A stretch of 64,000 nucleotides of DNA from the NCBI GenBank assembly GCA_905202145.1, contig CAJKQY010000001.1, positions 19,782 to 83,781 of the forward strand, given 5' to 3'. The position numbers and the translations under genes are program-made. The stretch's first letter is position 1, and each line of letters begins with the position of its first letter. This stretch comes from an uncultured Collinsella sp. Its GTDB lineage: Bacteria > Actinomycetota > Coriobacteriia > Coriobacteriales > Coriobacteriaceae. The notes beneath the pieces are model-generated. The model was not told where the DNA came from and ran no database searches. It saw nothing but the letters and a program-made list of their open reading frames with translations. Shown one piece after another: positions 3,788 to 64,000 of the stretch.

Positions 3788-4786
3788 TTGGCACGATCTT
3801 CGGGTTTCTCCACAAATCTGAATACCAAGCGACAATCAACGGGTATGCGCCCGTTGATTGTTTTCAGCCTGATTTCGGTGTTGCTGCTCACGTTTTACAT
3901 CCGCGAGGGCGAGGCAGGACCGATTCATGCCGTGCGTTCGGGCGTAACGACGATTACCTCGCCGGTGCGCTTTGTGGGTTCGGCTGTGGCGGCTCCCTTC
4001 AATGCGATCGGCAACGTGTTCTCTAACCTTACGGCGTCGCAGGACACGCTTGATGAGCTTAAGAAGCAAAACGAGGAACTGACCTCTAAGGTTGCTGAGC
4101 TCTCCGAGGCTCAAAAGACCGCTGAGCGTCTGGAGGGGCTGGTCGGCCTGCAGTCGACCTACAACCTTAAATCGACCGCAGCTCGTATCGTCGGTGCCTC
4201 GGGCGATGCCTGGACCTCGACCGTCACGATCGATAAGGGTTCTGCCGACGGGCTTACCATCAACATGCCCGTAACGAGTTCGGCCGGTGTTATCGGCCAG
4301 ATTATCGAGGTATCGGCCAAAACGTCGACCGTGCGCCTGATTGGCGACGAGAACTCGGGCGTGTCCGCCATGGTGCAGGACACGCGCGCCCAGGGTATGC
4401 TGCAGGGTCAGGCTGACGGCACGCTGCGTCTTGAGTACGTGAGCGTCGACTCCGATGTTAAGGTTGGCGACATCATCGTGACCTCGGGCATTGGCGGTGT
4501 GTTCCCCAAGGGTCTACCGCTCGGCACCGTCTCGTCGGTTGAGAAATCGGCAAACGACGTGTACTACACCATTGTGGTGCGCGCTCAGACCACGGCCGAG
4601 AACAACGAGGAAGTGCTGGTCATCACCTCGCTGACCGACGAACAGTCGGCCTCGGATGAGGACGTGAGCACGGCCAACAGCACGCCGCAGGGAACGTCGC
4701 GCGATGCTGCGACCAAGACGAAGGACGAGAGCTCGGATGACAGTTCCGACACGTCCGAGACGACCGATTCCGGCTCGAGCGAATAG
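3788..4786 (+). CDS. mreC: rod shape-determining protein MreC
   Basis: TM anchor, coiled-coil (LDELKKQNEELTSKVAELSEAQ) and MreC beta domain (GDIIVTSGIGGVFPKGLPLG); S/D/T-rich C-tail; TTG start, alternative ATG at 3845. Confidence 0.85.
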   Translation: MARSSGFSTNLNTKRQSTGMRPLIVFSLISVLLLTFYIREGEAGPIHAVRSGVTTITSPVRFVGSAVAAPFNAIGNVFSNLTASQDTLDELKKQNEELTSKVAELSEAQKTAERLEGLVGLQSTYNLKSTAARIVGASGDAWTSTVTIDKGSADGLTINMPVTSSAGVIGQIIEVSAKTSTVRLIGDENSGVSAMVQDTRAQGMLQGQADGTLRLEYVSVDSDVKVGDIIVTSGIGGVFPKGLPLGTVSSVEKSANDVYYTIVVRAQTTAENNEEVLVITSLTDEQSASDEDVSTANSTPQGTSRDAATKTKDESSDDSSDTSETTDSGSSE

Positions 4787-45680: not shown

Positions 45681-48329
45681 CTAGCAGACGGCGTAGTCCT
45701 GGGGCTCGCGGCCGTAGTAGGCGTCCAGGTAGAGCTCCTTGATCTCGCTCATGAGCGGGTAGCGCGGGTTAGCGCCGGTGCACTGGTCGTTGAATGCCTG
45801 CTCGGTCATCTCGTCGAGGGTGTCGAGGAAGTACTGCTCGTCAACGCCGTACTCAGCGATGGTGTGCTTGACACCGATGAAGTCGCAGAGCTCGGTGAGC
45901 TTGGCGATGAAGTTCTCGAAGACCTCACGGTCGTCCTTGCCGTCGATGCCGCAGTAACGAGCCATCTCGGCATAGTTGTGCAGCGCGTTGGGGTAAGGAT
46001 ACTGAGAGAAGGTTCCCATCTTGACAGGAGCCTCGGCGGCGTTGTAACGCATGACGCGGGTCAGGATGACTGCGTTTGCGAGGCCGTGGGGCAGATGGTG
46101 GAAAGCGCCGAGCTTGTGGGCCATGGAGTGGTTGAGGCCCAGGAAGGCGTTACCGAATGCCATACCGGCCATGCAGGATGCGTTGTGCATCTCCTCGCGG
46201 GCATGCGGGTCCTTAGCGCCGTTCGTGAAGCTGGAGGGCAGGTTCTCAAAGACGAGCTTGGCGGCGCGCTCGGAGAGGCCCTTGGTGTAGTCGGAAGCCA
46301 TGATGGAGACGTAGGACTCGATGGCGTGGGTCATGACGTCGATGCCAGAGGCAGCGGTGAGGCCCTTCGGGGCGGTCATGCAGTTGTCGGCGTCGACGAT
46401 AGCCATGTTGGGGAGCAGCGCGTAGTCGGCGAGCGGCCACTTGATGCCGGTCTCCTTGTCGGTGATGATGGCGAACGGCGTGCACTCGGAGCCAGTGCCC
46501 GAAGAGGTCGGGACGGCGACGAAGTAAGCCTTCTTGCCCATCTCGGGGAAGGTGAAGATACGCTTGCGGATGTCCATGAAGTCCATGGCCATGTCCTCGA
46601 AGTTCGCCTCGGGGTGCTCGTACATCATCCACATGATCTTGCCGGCGTCCATTGCGGAACCGCCGCCGACGGCGATGATGACATCCGGCTCGAAGAGCGT
46701 CATCTGCTTGGCGCCGCGACGTGCGCACTGCAGGGAGGGATCGGGCTCAACGTCGTAGAAGCAGTCGTGAGCGATGCCCATCTCATCGAGCTTGGCCTCG
46801 ATGGCACGCGTGTTGCCATTCTTGAAGAGGAACTGGTCGGTAACGATGAAGGCGCGCTTCTTGCCCATTACGGTGCCGAGCTCGTCGAGTGCGACGGGCG
46901 TGCAGCCCTTCTTGAAGTAGACCTTCTCGGGTGCGCGGAACCACAGCATGTTCTCGCGGCGCTCTGCCACGGTCTTGACGTTGATCAAGTGCTTCACCCC
47001 AACGTTCTCGGAGACGGAGTTGCCACCCCAGGAGCCGCAGCCCAGGGTTAGAGACGGCTTCATGCCGAAGTTGTAGAGGTCACCGATGCCGCCGTGCGAG
47101 GACGGGGTGTTGATGACGATGCGGCAGGCCTTCATGACGTGCTGGAACTTAGCGATCTTCTCGCTCTGTGCCGGATGCACGTAGAGAGAGGCGGTGTGGC
47201 CCGGGCCACCTGCGAGGACGAGGTGCTCTGCCTTGTCAACGGCCTCCTGGAAGTCCTTGGCGTGATACATAGCGAGGACCGGGGAGAGCTTCTCGTGGGA
47301 GAACTCTTCCTTCTCGGGATCGGTGGAGGTGACCTCGGCGATCAGGATCTTGGTCTTGGCGGGAACCTCGATGCCGGCGAGCTCGGCGATCTTGGCGGCA
47401 GCCATGCCGGGGATGCGGTGATCGAGAGCGCCGTTCTTGAACATGGCGGCACGCAGGGCCTCCATCTCGGCACCCTGCTTGACGAAGTAGCAGCCGCGCT
47501 TCTGGAACTCGGCCTTGACCTGGTCATAGATGGTGTCGATGACGGTGACGGACTGCTCGGAAGCGCAGATCATGCCGTTGTCGAACGTCTTGGAGTGGAT
47601 GATGGAGTTGACGGCGAGCTTGATGTCCGCGGTATCGTCGATGATGACCGGGGTGTTGCCGGCGCCGACGCCGAGTGCGGGCTTACCGGAGGAGTAAGCA
47701 GCCTTAACCATGCCCGGGCCACCGGTTGCGAGAATGATGTCGACGTCGCGCATGACCATGTTGGTCAGCTCGATGGACGGCTTGTCGACCCAGCCGATGA
47801 TGCCCTCAGGAGCACCGGCCTTGACAGCTGCGTCGAGAACGAGCTTGGCGGCGGCGATGGTGCACTTGGCGGCTGCCGGGTGCGGGGAGATGATGATGGC
47901 GTTACGGGTCTTCAGGCAGATGAGCGTCTTGAAGATGGCCGTGGAGGTCGGGTTGGTGGTCGGGATGACAGCGCCAACGATACCGATCGGCTCGGCGACC
48001 TTGGTGATGCCGTAAGCGTCGTCGCGCTCGATGACACCGCAGGTCTTGGTGTTCTTGTAAGCGTTGTAGATGTACTCAGCGGCGTAGTGGTTCTTGATGA
48101 CCTTGTCCTCGAGAACGCCACGGCCGGTCTCCTCGATGGCGAGCTTGGCCAAAGGAATACGAGCCTTGTTGGCGGCCATAGCAGCCTCGTAGAAGATCTT
48201 GTCTACCTGCTCCTGAGTGTACTCAGCGAATTTAGCCTGGGCCTCACGCATAGATTTGAGTTTGGCCTCAAGCGCCTCCACGTTGTCCACGATGGCGGGA
48301 GTAGTGTTTTCCGGTGACTTTTTCACCAT
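45681..48329 (-). CDS. adhE: bifunctional acetaldehyde-CoA/alcohol dehydrogenase
   Basis: 882-aa ALDH + Fe-ADH fusion with conserved AdhE N-terminus (AQAKFAEYTQEQVDKIF). Confidence 0.93.
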   Translation of the reverse strand: MVKKSPENTTPAIVDNVEALEAKLKSMREAQAKFAEYTQEQVDKIFYEAAMAANKARIPLAKLAIEETGRGVLEDKVIKNHYAAEYIYNAYKNTKTCGVIERDDAYGITKVAEPIGIVGAVIPTTNPTSTAIFKTLICLKTRNAIIISPHPAAAKCTIAAAKLVLDAAVKAGAPEGIIGWVDKPSIELTNMVMRDVDIILATGGPGMVKAAYSSGKPALGVGAGNTPVIIDDTADIKLAVNSIIHSKTFDNGMICASEQSVTVIDTIYDQVKAEFQKRGCYFVKQGAEMEALRAAMFKNGALDHRIPGMAAAKIAELAGIEVPAKTKILIAEVTSTDPEKEEFSHEKLSPVLAMYHAKDFQEAVDKAEHLVLAGGPGHTASLYVHPAQSEKIAKFQHVMKACRIVINTPSSHGGIGDLYNFGMKPSLTLGCGSWGGNSVSENVGVKHLINVKTVAERRENMLWFRAPEKVYFKKGCTPVALDELGTVMGKKRAFIVTDQFLFKNGNTRAIEAKLDEMGIAHDCFYDVEPDPSLQCARRGAKQMTLFEPDVIIAVGGGSAMDAGKIMWMMYEHPEANFEDMAMDFMDIRKRIFTFPEMGKKAYFVAVPTSSGTGSECTPFAIITDKETGIKWPLADYALLPNMAIVDADNCMTAPKGLTAASGIDVMTHAIESYVSIMASDYTKGLSERAAKLVFENLPSSFTNGAKDPHAREEMHNASCMAGMAFGNAFLGLNHSMAHKLGAFHHLPHGLANAVILTRVMRYNAAEAPVKMGTFSQYPYPNALHNYAEMARYCGIDGKDDREVFENFIAKLTELCDFIGVKHTIAEYGVDEQYFLDTLDEMTEQAFNDQCTGANPRYPLMSEIKELYLDAYYGREPQDYAVC

Positions 48330-48471
48330 TTGTGTCTCCTTGCGATCGGAGATTTACCCTACGCCTTGCATGATAGCAAGAAATTATTCGGCGAACGGTA
48401 AGATTCCCGTAAAAGGCACACTAAAACGCTTCAACTAAATGAACCGTTTCAACTAATGCTGCATCGCCCCG

Positions 48472-48498
48472 CTCATTGGGGACAGACTTACATGAGTG
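48472..48498. repeat. left arm of 27-bp perfect inverted repeat (CTCATTGGGGACAGACTTACATGAGTG); part of a cluster of direct CTCATT(T)GGGACAGAC copies (also 48503..48520 and partial 48558..48568)
   Basis: Exact reverse complement present at 49114..49140. Confidence 0.9.
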
Positions 48499-48650
48499 CT
48501 TTCACTCATTTGGGACAGACATCGTTTTGCCATTTTGTCGTTCTGGACCTGTTTTTGCCGCTCATTGGATATAAATAGGTTACAGGCTCAGCATTTCGCG
48601 TTCCTTCTCTCCTTTTAGGTGTTGCCTGTTCAGTTTTGAAAGGAGAGAAT

Positions 48651-49235
48651 ATGCCTCGATGCGCCCGCGCCGTTTCGCTCACCGGCTACTACCACGTTTT
48701 TGACCGTGGCAACTCCAAGCAGATTATTTTTGAAGATGACTCCGACCGCTATCGTTTCTTATCGGACATCGCGGACAGGTTTGCACGCCATGAAGTGGCG
48801 GTGTTGGCTTGGTGCCTTATGGATAACCACTTCCATTTGATGGTTGATGACCCATATGACAACCTTTCAAAGGCAATGCAGTGCGCATTGACGGCATATG
48901 CTAAGTATTTCAATGGGAAAACGGGAAGAACGGGGCATCTGTTTGATAATCGCTATTCGCGGGTCGCGGTTGAGTCGGACACGCAGGCGGTGCAGCTGCT
49001 CGACTATATTCATCTCAATCCCGTGAAAGGCGCGCTCGACTCGCTCGAGGCGTACCGTTGGTCAAGCTATAAGGCATACCAGCTGGGCTACGATCCCTTT
49101 GACATCTGCAAACACTCATGTAAGTCTGTCCCCAATGAGTGCAAAAAGGCGCCCTCCGCATGGGAGGACGCCTTTGGTAAGTTCTATGTGAACGCGAGGT
49201 CTTTGACCCGGAGAGTCCGAGGTACTTGTTGGTAA
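48651..49235 (+). CDS. IS200-like / REP-associated tyrosine transposase (Y1_Tnp, HUH)
   Basis: HUH motif HFHLMV and catalytic Tyr region YIHLNPVKG; strong RBS AAAGGAGAG before the ATG at 48651. Confidence 0.75.
   Translation: MPRCARAVSLTGYYHVFDRGNSKQIIFEDDSDRYRFLSDIADRFARHEVAVLAWCLMDNHFHLMVDDPYDNLSKAMQCALTAYAKYFNGKTGRTGHLFDNRYSRVAVESDTQAVQLLDYIHLNPVKGALDSLEAYRWSSYKAYQLGYDPFDICKHSCKSVPNECKKAPSAWEDAFGKFYVNARSLTRRVRGTCW
49114..49140. repeat. right arm of 27-bp perfect inverted repeat, located inside the 3' end of the transposase CDS
   Basis: CACTCATGTAAGTCTGTCCCCAATGAG = reverse complement of 48472..48498. Confidence 0.9.
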
Positions 49236-49243
49236 GACCTTAT

Positions 49244-49432
49244 TTAGGAGCGCGCAACCTTGCCGGACTTGAGGCAGGTGGAGCAAACGTTCATCTTGCG
49301 ACGGTGACCATCGACGACGACGTAGACGCGCTGGATGTTGGGGCGGAACTTACGGTTGGTGACGCGGTGAGAGTGGCTGATGGAGCGACCGGCAACGGGG
49401 TGCTTACCGCAAACTTCGCAAACTTTGGACAT
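49244..49432 (-). CDS. rpmB: 50S ribosomal protein L28
   Basis: MSKVCEVCGKHPVAGRSISHSHRVTNRKFRPNIQ signature; RBS AAGGAGGG. Confidence 0.9.
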   Translation of the reverse strand: MSKVCEVCGKHPVAGRSISHSHRVTNRKFRPNIQRVYVVVDGHRRKMNVCSTCLKSGKVARS

Positions 49433-49872
49433 AACTGACCCTCCTTGGGCGACAAACGAACATGTCGCGTTAACAAACAAGCCTGAACTATAGCACAGAA
49501 GCATGTCTCTGTGCGCAATCTACACAGAGATATTTCTCTTTTGGCGATAGTGCCCACGCCACGGCCCTGGACGTAGATCCGATTTGCGTGCAGCAGAGGG
49601 GATTATGCCAGCTCGCAGCAAGGTTTTCAAGCGCGTCCCACAAATATATATAGGTTTATGGAGCGATTGGCTCCGTTTACGGATTGACTTGTATTTATGC
49701 TCGCAATTGAGCCCGAGGTTAGCTACACTATGCCTTGACCATTAAAGGGGTACGAGATACCCACATGGAATTACATAGCTGCCAATGAGTAGTACTTCCT
49801 GTGGGTGTCTGGTTCCGCTTTGAGCGGTCGGGCATCTATTTTTTTGACTGTGTCAGCAGTCAAGACATGTGA

Positions 49873-51401
<1,529 letters not shown>

Positions 51402-61161: not shown

Positions 61162-62124
61162 ATGTCCGAAACCGGTCTGCTGCCGGCATATCTGATCGTC
61201 GGTTCCGATGGGGTCAAGCGCGACCACGCCGTCTCGCGTATGAAAGCTCGCTTGGAAAAGTCGGGTATGGTTGAGTTCAACCTTGATGAACGCGACATGA
61301 CGAAAGATCCCGATATCGAGTCGATCATCGGCTCACTCAATACCTTTCCCATGGGTAGCGAGTTTCGCCTGGTGATCCTCGACGGCTGCTCAAAACTTGC
61401 CAAGGCGGTCTCGGAACCGCTCGTGGAGTACCTCGCAAGTCCCAGCCCGACGACGGTCTGTCTCATTATCGCCGACTCACTTGCCAAGAATACGCGCCTG
61501 TATAAGGCAATCGCCAAGATCGATAAGAAGGCTATCGTCGATTGCTCGGGCACCAAGCGCTGGGAACTGCCGCGCCGCGTTCAGCAGATGGCGACGCAGC
61601 ACGGTAAGTCTATCTCGACGGCTGCCGCCGAGGAGCTTGTCTCGCGTTCGGGCGAAAACACGCGCATGCTCGATAACGACCTGGTAAAGCTCGCCCAGAT
61701 GGTCGAGGCGCCCCAGATTGAGCTTGCCGACGTGGAGCGTTGGATCGTGCGCACGGCCGAGGTTCAGCCCTGGGACTTTCTCAACGCCGTCTCGGCTCGC
61801 GATATGCGGCGTTCGCTCGAGCTCTTTAAGCTTCTGCCCTCCAAGAGCTACGTGTGGACCTACACGCTGCTGTGCGGTCGCATCCGTGAGCTGATTGTTG
61901 CTAAGGCGCTCGACTCTCGTGGGCAGGGGCGTGAGCTCGCCGCGACGCTCAAGCTTCAGGCCTGGCAGGTCAAGAATCACCTTACCTGGGCGCGTCGTTT
62001 TTCGATGACCGAGCTCGTTGCCGCGCTCGAGGGTGCCGTCGATGTGGAGCTCGCGCTCAAGGGTTCGGCCGATTCTCAGACCGCGCTTTTGCTCTGGATT
62101 ACGAACATCTTGAGAAAATCGTGA
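61162..62124 (+). CDS. holA: DNA polymerase III delta subunit
   Basis: Size, AAA+-like clamp-loader fold features and conserved comEC-holA-rpsT-lepA order. Confidence 0.65.
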   Translation: MSETGLLPAYLIVGSDGVKRDHAVSRMKARLEKSGMVEFNLDERDMTKDPDIESIIGSLNTFPMGSEFRLVILDGCSKLAKAVSEPLVEYLASPSPTTVCLIIADSLAKNTRLYKAIAKIDKKAIVDCSGTKRWELPRRVQQMATQHGKSISTAAAEELVSRSGENTRMLDNDLVKLAQMVEAPQIELADVERWIVRTAEVQPWDFLNAVSARDMRRSLELFKLLPSKSYVWTYTLLCGRIRELIVAKALDSRGQGRELAATLKLQAWQVKNHLTWARRFSMTELVAALEGAVDVELALKGSADSQTALLLWITNILRKS

Positions 62125-62257
62125 TGATACCTGCCTATTTGACAAATTCGTTCTATCCCTTTGAGGGGGAGCGTGCTATAGTAGGCGCTTGCATGACCTC
62201 ACCGTGTCTCAGAGGTGTCATACATTTTTTGCAAGGAACTCGAAAGGAACTCCAGAA

Positions 62258-62524
62258 GTGGCAAACATCAAGTCTCAGAAGAAGCGTATCCGCACCAATG
62301 AGGCAGCTCGCATGCGTAACAAGGCTGTCAAGTCCGAGCTCAAGACGCTGACCAAGCACGTCCAGTCCGCCGTCGCCGAGGGCGACGCCGAGAAGGCCCA
62401 GGCTGCCCTCAAGACCGTCACCAAGCGTCTCGACATGGCTGCCGCTAAGCATGTCATTCACAAGAACCAGGCTTCCAACCGCAAGTCCGGTCTTGCCAAG
62501 CTCGTGAACAGCATCAACGCTTAA
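62258..62524 (+). CDS. rpsT: 30S ribosomal protein S20
   Basis: [22 protein letters not shown] signature; GTG start. Confidence 0.9.
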
Positions 62525-62563
62525 GTTGTAAATTTCACACCACACAGATTACGCGCATAAATG

Positions 62564-62596
62564 GAGCCTGTTTTATGGAACAGGCTCCATTTTTTG
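62564..62596 (+). terminator. rho-independent terminator after rpsT
   Basis: GGAGCCTGTT ttatgg AACAGGCTCC ATTTTTTG. Confidence 0.8.
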
Positions 62597-62620
62597 TACC
62601 GCTCGGGTAAGATAGTCCGC

Positions 62621-64000
62621 ATGAATACTTCAATTGACATTTCCCACATCCGCAACTTCTCGATCGTTGCGCATATTGACCATGGCAAGTCCACGATCAG
62701 TGACCGCATCCTCGAGCTCACCCATACCGTCGATGAGCGCGACATGGAGTCGCAGCTGCTTGACACGATGGACATCGAGCGCGAGCGCGGCATCACGATC
62801 AAGTCCAATGCCGTCCGCGTTTCCTATGACGCCGACGACGGCGAGACGTATCAGTTCAACCTGATCGATACGCCGGGCCACGTGGACTTCACCTATGAGG
62901 TCTCGCGTTCGCTGGCCGCATGCGAGGGCGCGGTGCTCGTCGTGGACGCCACTCAGGGCGTCGAGGCGCAGACCGTTTCCAACGCGACGCTCGCCATGAA
63001 CGCCAACTTGGACATTGTTCCGGCCATCAACAAGATCGACCTTCCCTCGGCTCACCCCGACGAGGTTAAGACCGAGATCGAAGACGACCTGGCCATTCCC
63101 GCCGACGATGCCGTGTGCGTGTCGGGCAAGACCGGCGAGGGTATCCACGATTTGCTGGAGTCCATCGTCTTTTTGATCTCGCCTCCCAAGGGCGATGCAA
63201 ATGGCCCTCTCAAGGCACTGATTCTGGATTCGTACTTCGATGAGTACCGCGGCGTCGTCGCCACGGTGCGCGTCTTTGACGGTTCCATCAAAAAGGGTGA
63301 TACCCTGCGCATGATGCAGGCCAAGGGCGACTTCTTGGTCGACGGCGTGGGCGTCAAGCGCCCTGCCGAGACGCCGGTCGATGCTCTGACTGTTGGCGAG
63401 GTCGGCTATGTGGTCACGGGTCTGAAGGACCCCGAGGCTGTGCGCGTGGGCGATACCCTTACGTTGGCTTCGAACCCCTGCCCCGAGCCGCTGCCGGGCT
63501 ACCGTGAGGCCAAGCCCATGGTCTACACAGGCCTGTTCCCCATCGACAACAAGGACTATGAGAACCTGCGCGACGCGCTCGATAAGCTGCACGTCAACGA
63601 TCCGTCGTTGGTGTGGGAGCCCGAGACGTCGGTGGCGCTGGGCTTTGGCTTCCGCGTGGGCTTCCTGGGCCTGCTGCACATGGAGGTCGTCAAGGAGCGC
63701 CTGGAGCGCGAGTTCAATCTGGACCTGATCGCCACGAGCCCCTCGGTCGACTACCACGTGTACAAGACTGACGGCGAGATGATCGATGTCCGCAGCCCGC
63801 AGGATCTTCCCGAGGCCACGCGCATCGAGCGTATCGAAGAGCCCTACCTCAAGGCAAAGATCATCTGCCCGCCCGAGTATACGGGTGCCGTCATGCAGCT
63901 CGCTATCGAGCACCGTGGCGTCACGACCGATATGATCCACCTGACGAGCAAATCGGTCGAGATGCGCTTTGATATGCCGCTTGCCGAGCTCATCTTGGAC
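62621..64000 (+). CDS. lepA: elongation factor 4 (LepA), 3'-partial at window end
   Basis: G1 AHIDHGKST, G3 DTPGH, NKID; the reading frame is open to the window end. Confidence 0.92.
   Translation, partial: MNTSIDISHIRNFSIVAHIDHGKSTISDRILELTHTVDERDMESQLLDTMDIERERGITIKSNAVRVSYDADDGETYQFNLIDTPGHVDFTYEVSRSLAACEGAVLVVDATQGVEAQTVSNATLAMNANLDIVPAINKIDLPSAHPDEVKTEIEDDLAIPADDAVCVSGKTGEGIHDLLESIVFLISPPKGDANGPLKALILDSYFDEYRGVVATVRVFDGSIKKGDTLRMMQAKGDFLVDGVGVKRPAETPVDALTVGEVGYVVTGLKDPEAVRVGDTLTLASNPCPEPLPGYREAKPMVYTGLFPIDNKDYENLRDALDKLHVNDPSLVWEPETSVALGFGFRVGFLGLLHMEVVKERLEREFNLDLIATSPSVDYHVYKTDGEMIDVRSPQDLPEATRIERIEEPYLKAKIICPPEYTGAVMQLAIEHRGVTTDMIHLTSKSVEMRFDMPLAELILD

Follow-up and report, generated by a model that had tools for sequence, protein, structure and literature searches.

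The DNA analysed here, referred to below as the window, comprises 64,000 nucleotides (nt) of contig CAJKQY010000001.1 (assembly GCA_905202145.1) from an uncultured Collinsella sp. It is Collinsella aerofaciens-like, with flanks 95-98% identical to those of C. aerofaciens TSDC17.2-1.1. The subject of this report is the 914-bp spacer between the genes adhE and rpmB, which holds one plus-strand open reading frame (ORF; 48651-49235, 194 amino acids, aa) for a predicted Y1 HUH (histidine-hydrophobic-histidine) protein, together with short inverted repeats. We interpret this region as a probable partly decayed TIRtron, i.e. a gene similar to those of RAYTs (tyrosine transposases associated with repetitive extragenic palindromes, REPs), accompanied by inverted repeats that share the motif GGGGWSAS (TIRtron, with its TIR-associated tyrosine transposase, TIRYT; Di Nocera, De Gregorio & Rocco 2013, BMC Genomics 14:522, PMC3733652). 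Both neighbouring genes lie on the minus strand and are thus co-directional, not convergent as the initial annotation had it; the ORF diverges from adhE and converges on rpmB. The distinguished features are summarized in Table 1.

Table 1. Features of the adhE-rpmB region of the window, followed by the divergent homologues (percentage identity) with their locations and repeat units. Positions refer to the window unless a locus is named; L002 carries an intact allele of the element.
Feature	Position	Strand	Evidence	Repeat unit
adhE (882 aa), conserved left neighbour	45681..48329	-	ORF call; adhE annotation in 98% identical C. aerofaciens record	
End of conserved adhE-upstream block: AT-rich imperfect hairpin AAACGCTTCA...TGAACCGTTT	48423..48456	.	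alignments	
Variable gap content: probable decayed TIRtron (truncated Y1 gene and leftover repeats), 687 bp, 50.2% GC	48457..49143	+		
Left terminal inverted repeat, complete 49-nt arm, equivalent to L002 3822-3870	48472..48520	+		
Degenerate third partial repeat CCGCTCATTGG	48558..48568	+	direct repeat	
5'-leader stem-loop, 3' arm = ribosome-binding site (TTCTCTCCTTT / AAAGGAGAGAA)	48605..48649	+	11-nt perfect inverted repeat	
Complete Y1 HUH catalytic core, codons 1-152: H60-F-H62, Y119-IHL-NP, R136-W-S-S	48651..49106	+	profile, alignment	
Deletion junction TGC, 3-nt microhomology; 368 bp missing relative to the full-length element	49107..49109	+	megablast	
Fortuitous tail, 41-42 codons, Cys-153 codon shared with the junction	49107..49235	+	alignment	
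Outer unit of right terminal inverted repeat, sole survivor; 16-mer at 49124-49139	49113..49141	-		
rpmB intrinsic terminator, a host feature; right boundary of the variable gap (49142)	49142..49175	-	inverted repeat; conserved in L001, L002, L130	
rpmB (ribosomal protein L28, 62 aa), conserved right neighbour	49244..49432	-	ORF call, related loci	
P0111 (53%)	adhE-rpmB gap (L130)			TGGTGCA-TTGGGGTCAGGTTACTT-TGCACCA, three left, two to three right, inverted
P0075 (59%)	adhE-rpmB gap (L142)			106-nt arms of GGGGAC units
P0098 (56%)	between MatE gene and cobA/ftsH (L126)			TAGTCATT-GGGGACGTTCATA-AATGACTA
P0119 (48%)	adjoins secG (L145)			GTCAAAA-TGGGACGGGTTTG-TTTTGAC

The ORF is preceded by the Shine-Dalgarno sequence AAGGAG (48640-48645), and its product matches the Pfam family Y1_Tnp (PF01797) over residues 13-121 (E 5.8e-8; 33.3 bits, cut-off 23). 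This bears out the initial identification of a Y1 HUH transposase-like protein with the motifs HFHLMV (H60 and H62, 48828-48836) and YIHLNPVKG (Y119, 49005-49007). Thirteen members of the protein family, down to 41% identity, have in common an N-terminal Y1 core and a conserved C-terminal helix-turn-helix (HTH). H60-F-H62, Y119, Y119-IHL-N123-P124 and R136-W-S-S are invariant in the family alignment, and the window ORF has them all. The C-terminal HTH is recognized weakly by Pfam in full-length homologues (HTH_23, E 2.7e-4; HTH_7, E 0.0098; both under the Pfam cut-offs) and is absent from the window copy, in which it has been deleted.

A search of the PDB with the full-length protein as a single sequence gave noise only, so a family profile and a structure model were required. 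The best solved match to the family profile was Escherichia coli TnpA_REP (4ER8; E 0.001), while its C-terminus matched the winged-helix regulator PH1932 (E 0.004). The structure model is that of a full-length relative, whose residues 1-153 are shared by the window protein at 96% identity. AlphaFold predicted a beta-alpha core (residues 13-126) joined by a helical linker to a bundle of helices (192-250), with a mean predicted local distance difference test score of 84.8. Foldseek placed 4ER8 first (E 9e-6), followed by the TnpA structures of IS608, ISDra2 and IS200 (about 1e-3). As judged from sequence and model, the predicted ORF product is a Y1 HUH protein of the REP-associated branch (class 2, Y---NP), and the view that this is no classical DDE insertion sequence stands. 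The suggested RAYT relationship holds in part: 4ER8 is the best match by both profile and structure, but the score against the NCBIfam equivalog REP_Tyr_transpos is 57 bits, under the 80-bit cut-off. In RAYTs the motif NP(L/V)(R/K)xG adjoins the tyrosine (Nunvar 2010, PMC2817692); the window protein has NPVKGA, with the glycine one position early, and the homologues P0082 and P0098 have NPVKAG, which fits.

Inverted repeat arms of 33 nt (94% identity, 27 nt perfect) were found at 48472-48504 and 49107-49139. A perfect inverted repeat of 27 nt inside 1.2 kb far exceeds chance. The initial annotation had this repeat bracketing the gene; it does exist, but its right arm falls inside the ORF, from codon 153. 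The 16-mer CTCATTGGGGACAGAC is present three times in the locus (two exact copies and one with a single mismatch) and nowhere else in the 64-kb window at up to two mismatches (0.55 matches are expected at three mismatches). The left arm is composed of two direct 16-mers, CTCATTGGGGACAGAC (48472-48487) and CTCATTTGGGACAGAC (48505-48520), and between them is the hairpin ATGAGTG-CTTT-CACTCAT (48492-48509). The sequence GGGGACAG (48478-48485; also on the minus strand within 49124-49139) fits the TIRtron motif GGGGWSAS. Downstream of a degenerate third repeat there is a TATAAAT box (48570-48576), a possible putative -10 element. A simple promoter/terminator scan gave no consensus promoter for the ORF; it also overlooked the terminator hairpin of rpmB, one that can be seen in the sequence (13 bp, G+C-rich, 49145-49157 / 49163-49175, followed by a minus-strand T-run, plus-strand AAAAA at 49143-49147).

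Comparison with related sequences revealed that the window copy is not intact. The protein search returned 1314 relatives, and the commonest close relative, P0024 (258 aa), aligns at 96% identity with no more than the first 79% of the query. Four metagenome contigs encode P0024 in their adhE-rpmB spacer. Locus L002 has an intact allele, whose gene (4001-4777) is framed by 49-nt terminal inverted repeats with 94% identity, and each arm contains two 16-mers, CTCATTKGGGACAGAC, 33 nt apart with a small hairpin in between. Megablast alignment equates window position 49109 with L002 4459 and window position 49107 with L002 4828, which gives a deletion of 368 bp. Lost with it were codons 154-258, which include the HTH domain, and then the stop codon, spacer and inner right repeat. 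Whereas the right arm of L002 (4812-4860) has two units, as does the left, the window retains a single unit on the right, against two full units and the degenerate third on the left. Beyond the junction the ORF continues across what is left of the right repeat, its outer unit, and then across the rpmB terminator and the 3' region of rpmB; this tail is unrelated to the family, and its frame and length vary in sister alleles (P0003, 180 aa; P0001, 196 aa). The window copy is therefore a deletion derivative of a 258-aa gene, and the initial suggestion of a functional copy with its cognate repeats has to be withdrawn: the C-terminal third and half of the right repeat are gone. For annotation the gain is modest: the appropriate label for the ORF is truncated TIRYT/RAYT-like Y1 gene, not active insertion sequence, and its final 41-42 codons are not genuine coding sequence of the family.

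How far this decay has gone bears on whether the window gene is a pseudogene heading for loss and its repeats inert fossils. Besides the lost HTH domain and native stop codon and the unconserved, frame-shifting tail, four sister alleles (L018, L067, L075 and L080) share the same junction and have also lost about 400 bp in a second deletion (window 48505 to 48903/48919), and with it the HUH motif; the truncated lineage is thus decaying stepwise. Public protein clusters contain 9882 full-length members and 351, 85 and 75 members of the window-type truncated forms. The closest relative by adhE (99.0%; 99.9% to the decayed L075) is element-free, and the dispersed repeat sites described below are conserved between species. 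On the other hand, the catalytic core is complete, its codons 1-152 being 93.6% identical at the nucleotide level to full-length alleles, and E. coli TnpA_REP (165 aa) lacks an HTH domain altogether. Non-deleted copies in species-representative genomes, by contrast, retain an intact 258-aa ORF in 19 of 19 cases, with a ratio of non-synonymous to synonymous substitution rates (dN/dS) of 0.089. Within the truncated clade (the window, L135 and L137), codons 1-152 show 12-18 synonymous and 3-5 non-synonymous differences (dN/dS 0.05-0.11 at dS 0.13-0.21), while about 3.5 non-synonymous per synonymous difference would be expected under neutrality. These counts are small, and one truncated allele, L136, groups with full-length alleles; the low values may mean either that the HTH-less core is still useful or that variation has been imported by recombination with full-length alleles. 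We give a dead remnant, with gene and repeats alike lacking a present role, slightly less than even odds.

Two database proteins, P0102 and P0103, have the first approximately 87 Y1 residues fused to a cupin-domain protein. The break, at ...AKYF, is where the 5'-deleted alleles (P0047) begin, and it reflects either an assembly chimaera or a recurrent breakpoint near TTCAATGGG.

The repeat unit is dispersed outside the locus, the outcome for which the search suggested in the initial annotation was to look. A scan for the 16-mer, with one genome per species, returned at least 120 stretches, nearly all from Collinsella. Among the matches listed, 26 correspond to the adhE-rpmB locus, each with a Y1 gene, so that 26 of 26 Y1-bearing loci lie between adhE and rpmB; the remainder have no Y1 gene, and the approximately 96-98 non-locus sites among them collapse to about 12 conserved orthologous intergenic sites. 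The dispersed unit is an imperfect palindrome of about 27 nt, (C)ACTCATT-GGGGACAGACTTA-AATGAGT(G), which begins (C/T)A-CTCATT, finishes AATGAG-T(G/A) and has no GTAG. Outside the locus it forms singles, inverted doublets 42-75 bp apart and direct arrays, frequently just beyond a terminator-like hairpin; an annotated example is the intergenic region after rplX. When single-stranded, the unit is predicted to fold into an 8-bp stem with a G-rich 13-nt loop, and a doublet into a long hairpin (-39.8 kcal/mol). The repeats were initially called REP-like. Dispersed hairpin units are indeed present, but, unlike classical REPs, they bear no GTAG tag and do not reach a high copy number. When the window was aligned to all repeat-bearing loci in search of filled and empty sites, overlap was found only at the adhE-rpmB locus. 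At the gathering score, Rfam gave nothing in the window, the element-free relative or 12 repeat-bearing loci, so the repeats do not belong to any catalogued RNA family; under permissive settings only sub-threshold look-alikes of microRNA hairpins emerged, and the 'Collinsella-1' motif did not match.

Several further observations concern these repeats. Eight of the repeat-bearing loci (L030, L033, L059, L065, L078, L088, L093 and L110) represent one orthologous site, at which a constant left flank and a doublet are followed by at least three different right flanks across Collinsella genomes. Doublets thus border on variable DNA, where they may be markers of rearrangement. In intergenic clusters at L010, L016, L031, L052, L083, L113 and others, units of the window type (type A) are intermingled with a second repeat type, (T)AGTCRTTGGGGACGTTCTTAAACGACT(A). 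It has 47 core matches in 875 kb and is the same as the units flanking the P0098-type gene. This interleaving suggests mixed arrays, like the mosaic REP clusters of enterobacteria. At L141 (1431-1940; record NZ_OY725717.1) a ribosomal protein operon is broken after rplX by a 510-bp repeat-bearing spacer, which is followed by a Gfo/Idh/MocA oxidoreductase gene. In an uncultured Clostridia metagenome-assembled genome (L019, 5952-6857; CALXRH010000005.1, 28% GC), a Y1+HTH gene encoding a protein 31% identical to that of Collinsella is flanked on both sides by a 46-nt perfect palindrome with an exact copy of CTCATTGGGGACAGAC; this DNA motif is strikingly conserved across phyla.

Upstream of the ORF a perfect 11-bp stem pairs 48605-48615 with 48639-48649 and thereby covers the ribosome-binding site (RNA fold -21.3 kcal/mol, z = -3.2). 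L002 carries this hairpin as well, and in L126, the locus of the 56%-identical homologue, different sequence forms an analogous pairing. In IS200 a leader hairpin sequesters the ribosome-binding site and represses translation. The Collinsella hairpin probably acts as a similar translational brake that holds translation low.

This IS200-like leader is one of four features that would speak for an autonomous IS200/IS605-type insertion sequence, newly inserted between adhE and rpmB and still mobile; the others are the Pfam Y1_Tnp match, a GC content under that of the flanks, and a junction without the element in a close relative. Such an origin is most improbable, being already contradicted by the distribution and anatomy of the element: the gene occurs in this one gap only (26 listed loci and the metagenome contigs), and it has terminal inverted repeats instead of distinct left- and right-end subterminal hairpins. 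Moreover, the window copy is deleted at its right end, its best structural relative is TnpA_REP and not IS608 TnpA, no tnpB was found among the window ORFs, and the protein family combines the class 2 signature Y---NP with an extra HTH domain (PMC6006769). The initial description as an IS200/IS605-like unit is accordingly dropped for an element that is present once, in one fixed gap. A horizontally acquired island, as first proposed, is likewise too simple an account, the gene being found in the same gap of many Collinsella species-level genomes.

The variable gap (48457-49143) has a GC content of 50.2% compared with 60.7% for the whole window, in agreement with the value of about 50% reported initially. 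At third codon positions (GC3) the ORF core has 64%, while adhE has 86% and pyrR 81%. The interval 48001-50000 is the principal stretch below 53% GC in the 64 kb; the sole other one, 62101-62700 (50.8%), lies elsewhere in the window.

DDE insertion sequences, prophage or plasmid fragments and defence genes were also considered and have no support, PHROGs and PADLOC searches not having been made; a plasmid fragment is unsupported because matches in the plasmid database are only to a mislabelled piece of Collinsella chromosome. The 900-kb C. aerofaciens record NZ_OY725717.1, 'plasmid 6', bears adhE, rpmB, the pyr operon and ribosomal protein operons, and is evidently a chromosome piece filed as a plasmid.

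More divergent members of the family carry repeats of their own. The genes for P0111, P0075, P0098 and P0119 each lie between inverted arrays of a hairpin unit of their own (Table 1). The stems of these units differ by compensating changes, and the loops are G-rich throughout: GGGG(A/T)C in P0111, P0075 and P0098, and TGGGAC/TGGGGC in P0119. No counterpart of the L126 flanks (P0098 type) could be placed in the single annotated Collinsella record, so this locus may belong to Collinsella or to another genus. The P0111-type unit is dispersed too, the full 31-nt unit being present in 86 of 120 metagenome stretches, in DNA of 60% GC and in at least eight flank contexts; none of the 86 carries adhE, rpmB or a Y1 gene.

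Four different contents of the adhE-rpmB gap were distinguished, i.e. type A, the P0111 type, the P0075 type and a 185-bp filler, all with identical boundaries (48456/48457 and 49142). On the left, the window, L002, L130 and L001 part directly after ...GTTTCAAC(T/A)A, and on the right the contents end at the A-tract of the rpmB terminator. The filler occupies L001 4128-4312 (C. aerofaciens TSDC17.2-1.1, NZ_OY725717.1), so the gap of this element-free close relative, which confirms the predicted junction lacking the element, is not simply empty; the filler has no similarity to the window, any compared locus or Rfam. The adhE gene of L130, which carries the P0111 type (53% protein identity), is 98.2-98.4% identical to that of type-A carriers, and L001 (filler) and L075 (decayed type A) have adhE genes that are 99.9% identical. 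Gap content therefore turns over much faster than the flanks.

These identical boundaries and near-identical flanks, together with the low GC3 of all gap alleles (55-65%), raise the possibility that the gap is a recombination cassette site, at which the gene is cargo swapped by homologous recombination or by site-specific insertion beside the rpmB terminator, and not a long-resident domesticated gene. We regard this as a possibility worth keeping but tentative. Within type A the gene diverges about as fast as its flanks (nucleotide identity 93.6% versus 92.3% for adhE), and no integrase, att-like duplication or second copy was seen. RAYT-type genes are reported to outpace neighbouring genes in evolution and to co-evolve with their repeats (PMC2817692). 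A cassette site would in any case complement a resident TIRtron rather than replace it.

A bolder combination of these observations can be formulated. The adhE-rpmB gap would then be a fixed docking site, where at least three divergent nuclease/repeat pairs (53-59% protein identity, differing stems, GGGG(A/T)C loop) replace one another between strains with 98-99.9% identical flanking genes, each pair upholding its own small dispersed family, and the HTH-less 153-residue core would be an active stand-alone nuclease under purifying selection. We consider this speculative and unlikely as a whole. If true, it would make Collinsella a tractable Gram-positive gut model for the co-evolution and turnover of REP-like repeats and their enzymes.

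The interpretation that we prefer, with a probability of roughly 0.8, is that the region is a partly decayed TIRtron: a single-copy, chromosomally fixed TIRYT gene with its flanking cognate repeats. Homology, catalytic motifs and fold are evident from the comparisons, as are the anatomy and dispersal of the repeats, the fixed location and the deletion. In other Collinsella the intact element occupies about 1.04 kb of the adhE-rpmB gap and encodes, between 49-nt terminal inverted repeats, a 258-aa protein with a predicted N-terminal HUH/Tyr single-strand DNA nuclease-ligase domain and a C-terminal HTH. Each terminal repeat consists of two units bearing CTCATT-GGGGACAG-AC. By analogy with TnpA_REP and IS608 TnpA (PMC3333891), the protein may recognize the folded single-stranded repeat, e.g. 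on the lagging-strand template, and may cut and rejoin it via a 5'-phosphotyrosine link with a metal held by the HUH histidines. Repeats could in this way be created, duplicated or rearranged in trans, while the gene itself would stay in its gap. The window copy arose by the 368-bp deletion at the 3-nt microhomology, followed by chance read-through into the outer repeat and the rpmB terminator; the truncated protein might continue to work.

Several points weigh against this interpretation. We know of no biochemical or transposition evidence for any TIRYT, and action on the repeats is proposed by analogy. The window copy, lacking the HTH domain, may be inactive, and sister lineages have lost the HUH motif through the second deletion. 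The repeats are few (about 12 sites), and their positions are conserved between species, so that recent mobility can only be conjectured. The strain with the filler in its gap keeps both repeat families (four type-A and seven P0111-type unit places in the 900-kb C. aerofaciens record), so the repeats persist without this gene. Finally, no REP-like sequences were reported near subclass 2.1 genes, the group to which most TIRYTs belong (Quentin et al. 2018, PMC6006769).

The general idea of the initial annotation was right, and its reading is partly supported: what occupies the fixed site is a shortened representative of a known class and no functional mobile island. To our knowledge, work on REP/RAYT systems and TIRtrons is nearly confined to Proteobacteria and a few other Gram-negative phyla, and the function of these elements is debated. 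The remark that such elements are poorly catalogued outside Proteobacteria is fair for Coriobacteriia, although the kind itself is known (TIRYT/TIRtron, PMC3733652). A clear TIRtron-type system is documented here in an abundant human-gut actinobacterium. It combines a small, countable family of repeats with several types of cognate gene and repeat and with naturally occurring loss-of-function alleles, a handy comparative data set that could serve the question of whether repeat conservation depends on an intact cognate gene.

Among known systems, the TnpA proteins of the IS200/IS605 family (IS608, ISDra2, IS200) share with the Collinsella protein the Y1 HUH fold and catalytic residues and, presumably, the recognition of DNA hairpins, as well as the leader hairpin over the ribosome-binding site. 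The Collinsella element differs in not being multicopy, in its terminal inverted repeats, in the Y---NP signature and added HTH, and in having no tnpB. Members of the IS200/IS605 family have no terminal inverted repeats (PMC3333891), and membership was rejected on copy number, the presence of such repeats and the class 2 motif. In the Actinobacteridae sampled by Quentin et al., only IS200-type genes were found (PMC6006769).

REPtrons, which consist of a RAYT/TnpA_REP with REPs, bacterial interspersed mosaic elements (BIME) or REP doublets forming hairpins (REPIN) (Nunvar 2010, PMC2817692; Bertels & Rainey 2011, PMC3116915; Ton-Hoang 2012, PMC3333891; 4ER8), are closer in organization. Like them, the Collinsella system has a single-copy HUH/Tyr gene in a conserved extragenic gap, inversely flanked by short palindromes that are also dispersed intergenically, inverted doublets included; gene and repeats co-vary between types, and 4ER8 is the best match by sequence profile and structure. 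In keeping with vertical inheritance, the gene always lies between adhE and rpmB and has a dN/dS of 0.089, though the gap content does switch between close relatives. However, the Collinsella repeats have no GTAG (or CGTC) tag and occupy about 12 sites, not hundreds, while cognate REPs typically exceed 100 copies. A conserved G-rich motif lies in the loop of the single unit, the protein has an extra HTH domain, and the REP_Tyr_transpos score of 57 bits is below 80. Classical RAYT/REP membership was rejected on four grounds: a score below the NCBIfam cut-off, the missing GTAG tag, the low copy number and the additional domain. By copy number alone the nearest are the low-abundance Group 1/4 RAYTs, whose flanking 16-mers have about 12-14 occurrences (Bertels 2017, PMC5581495).

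Most features are shared with TIRtrons. These likewise have a RAYT-like Y1 gene and terminal inverted repeats with GGGGWSAS (GGGGACAG in the window, GGGGTCAG in the P0111 allele L130). Some TIRtron repeats are complementary to themselves, and their families, made up of singles, dimers and clusters, are moderately abundant (PMC3733652); the Collinsella repeats are partly self-complementary and form a smallish dispersed family of singles, dimers and clusters. Of the 26 TIRYTs, 20 belong to TnpA-Y1 subclass 2.1, all with a C-terminal HTH (Bac_DnaA_C, HTH_23 or HTH_28), and its members bear Y---NP, the signature of class 2, with a serine motif following the tyrosine (PMC6006769). The Collinsella protein, too, is longer than RAYTs and has a C-terminal HTH, Y---NP and a serine motif after the tyrosine, and there are few copies per genome. 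The differences lie in the host, neither PMC3733652 nor PMC6006769 mentioning Collinsella or Coriobacteriia, in the loss of the HTH domain and the inner right repeat from the window copy, and in the alternation of several divergent gene/repeat pairs in a single chromosomal gap. In contrast to subclass 2.1 as described by Quentin et al., which has no REP-like sequences nearby, the flanking units in Collinsella are small dispersed hairpins. The closest published class, to which the element fits by shared features, is therefore TIRYT/TIRtron, largely of TnpA-Y1 subclass 2.1. The element type is already known, and its host and the clear dispersal of its hairpin units are modest additions to it rather than a new kind.

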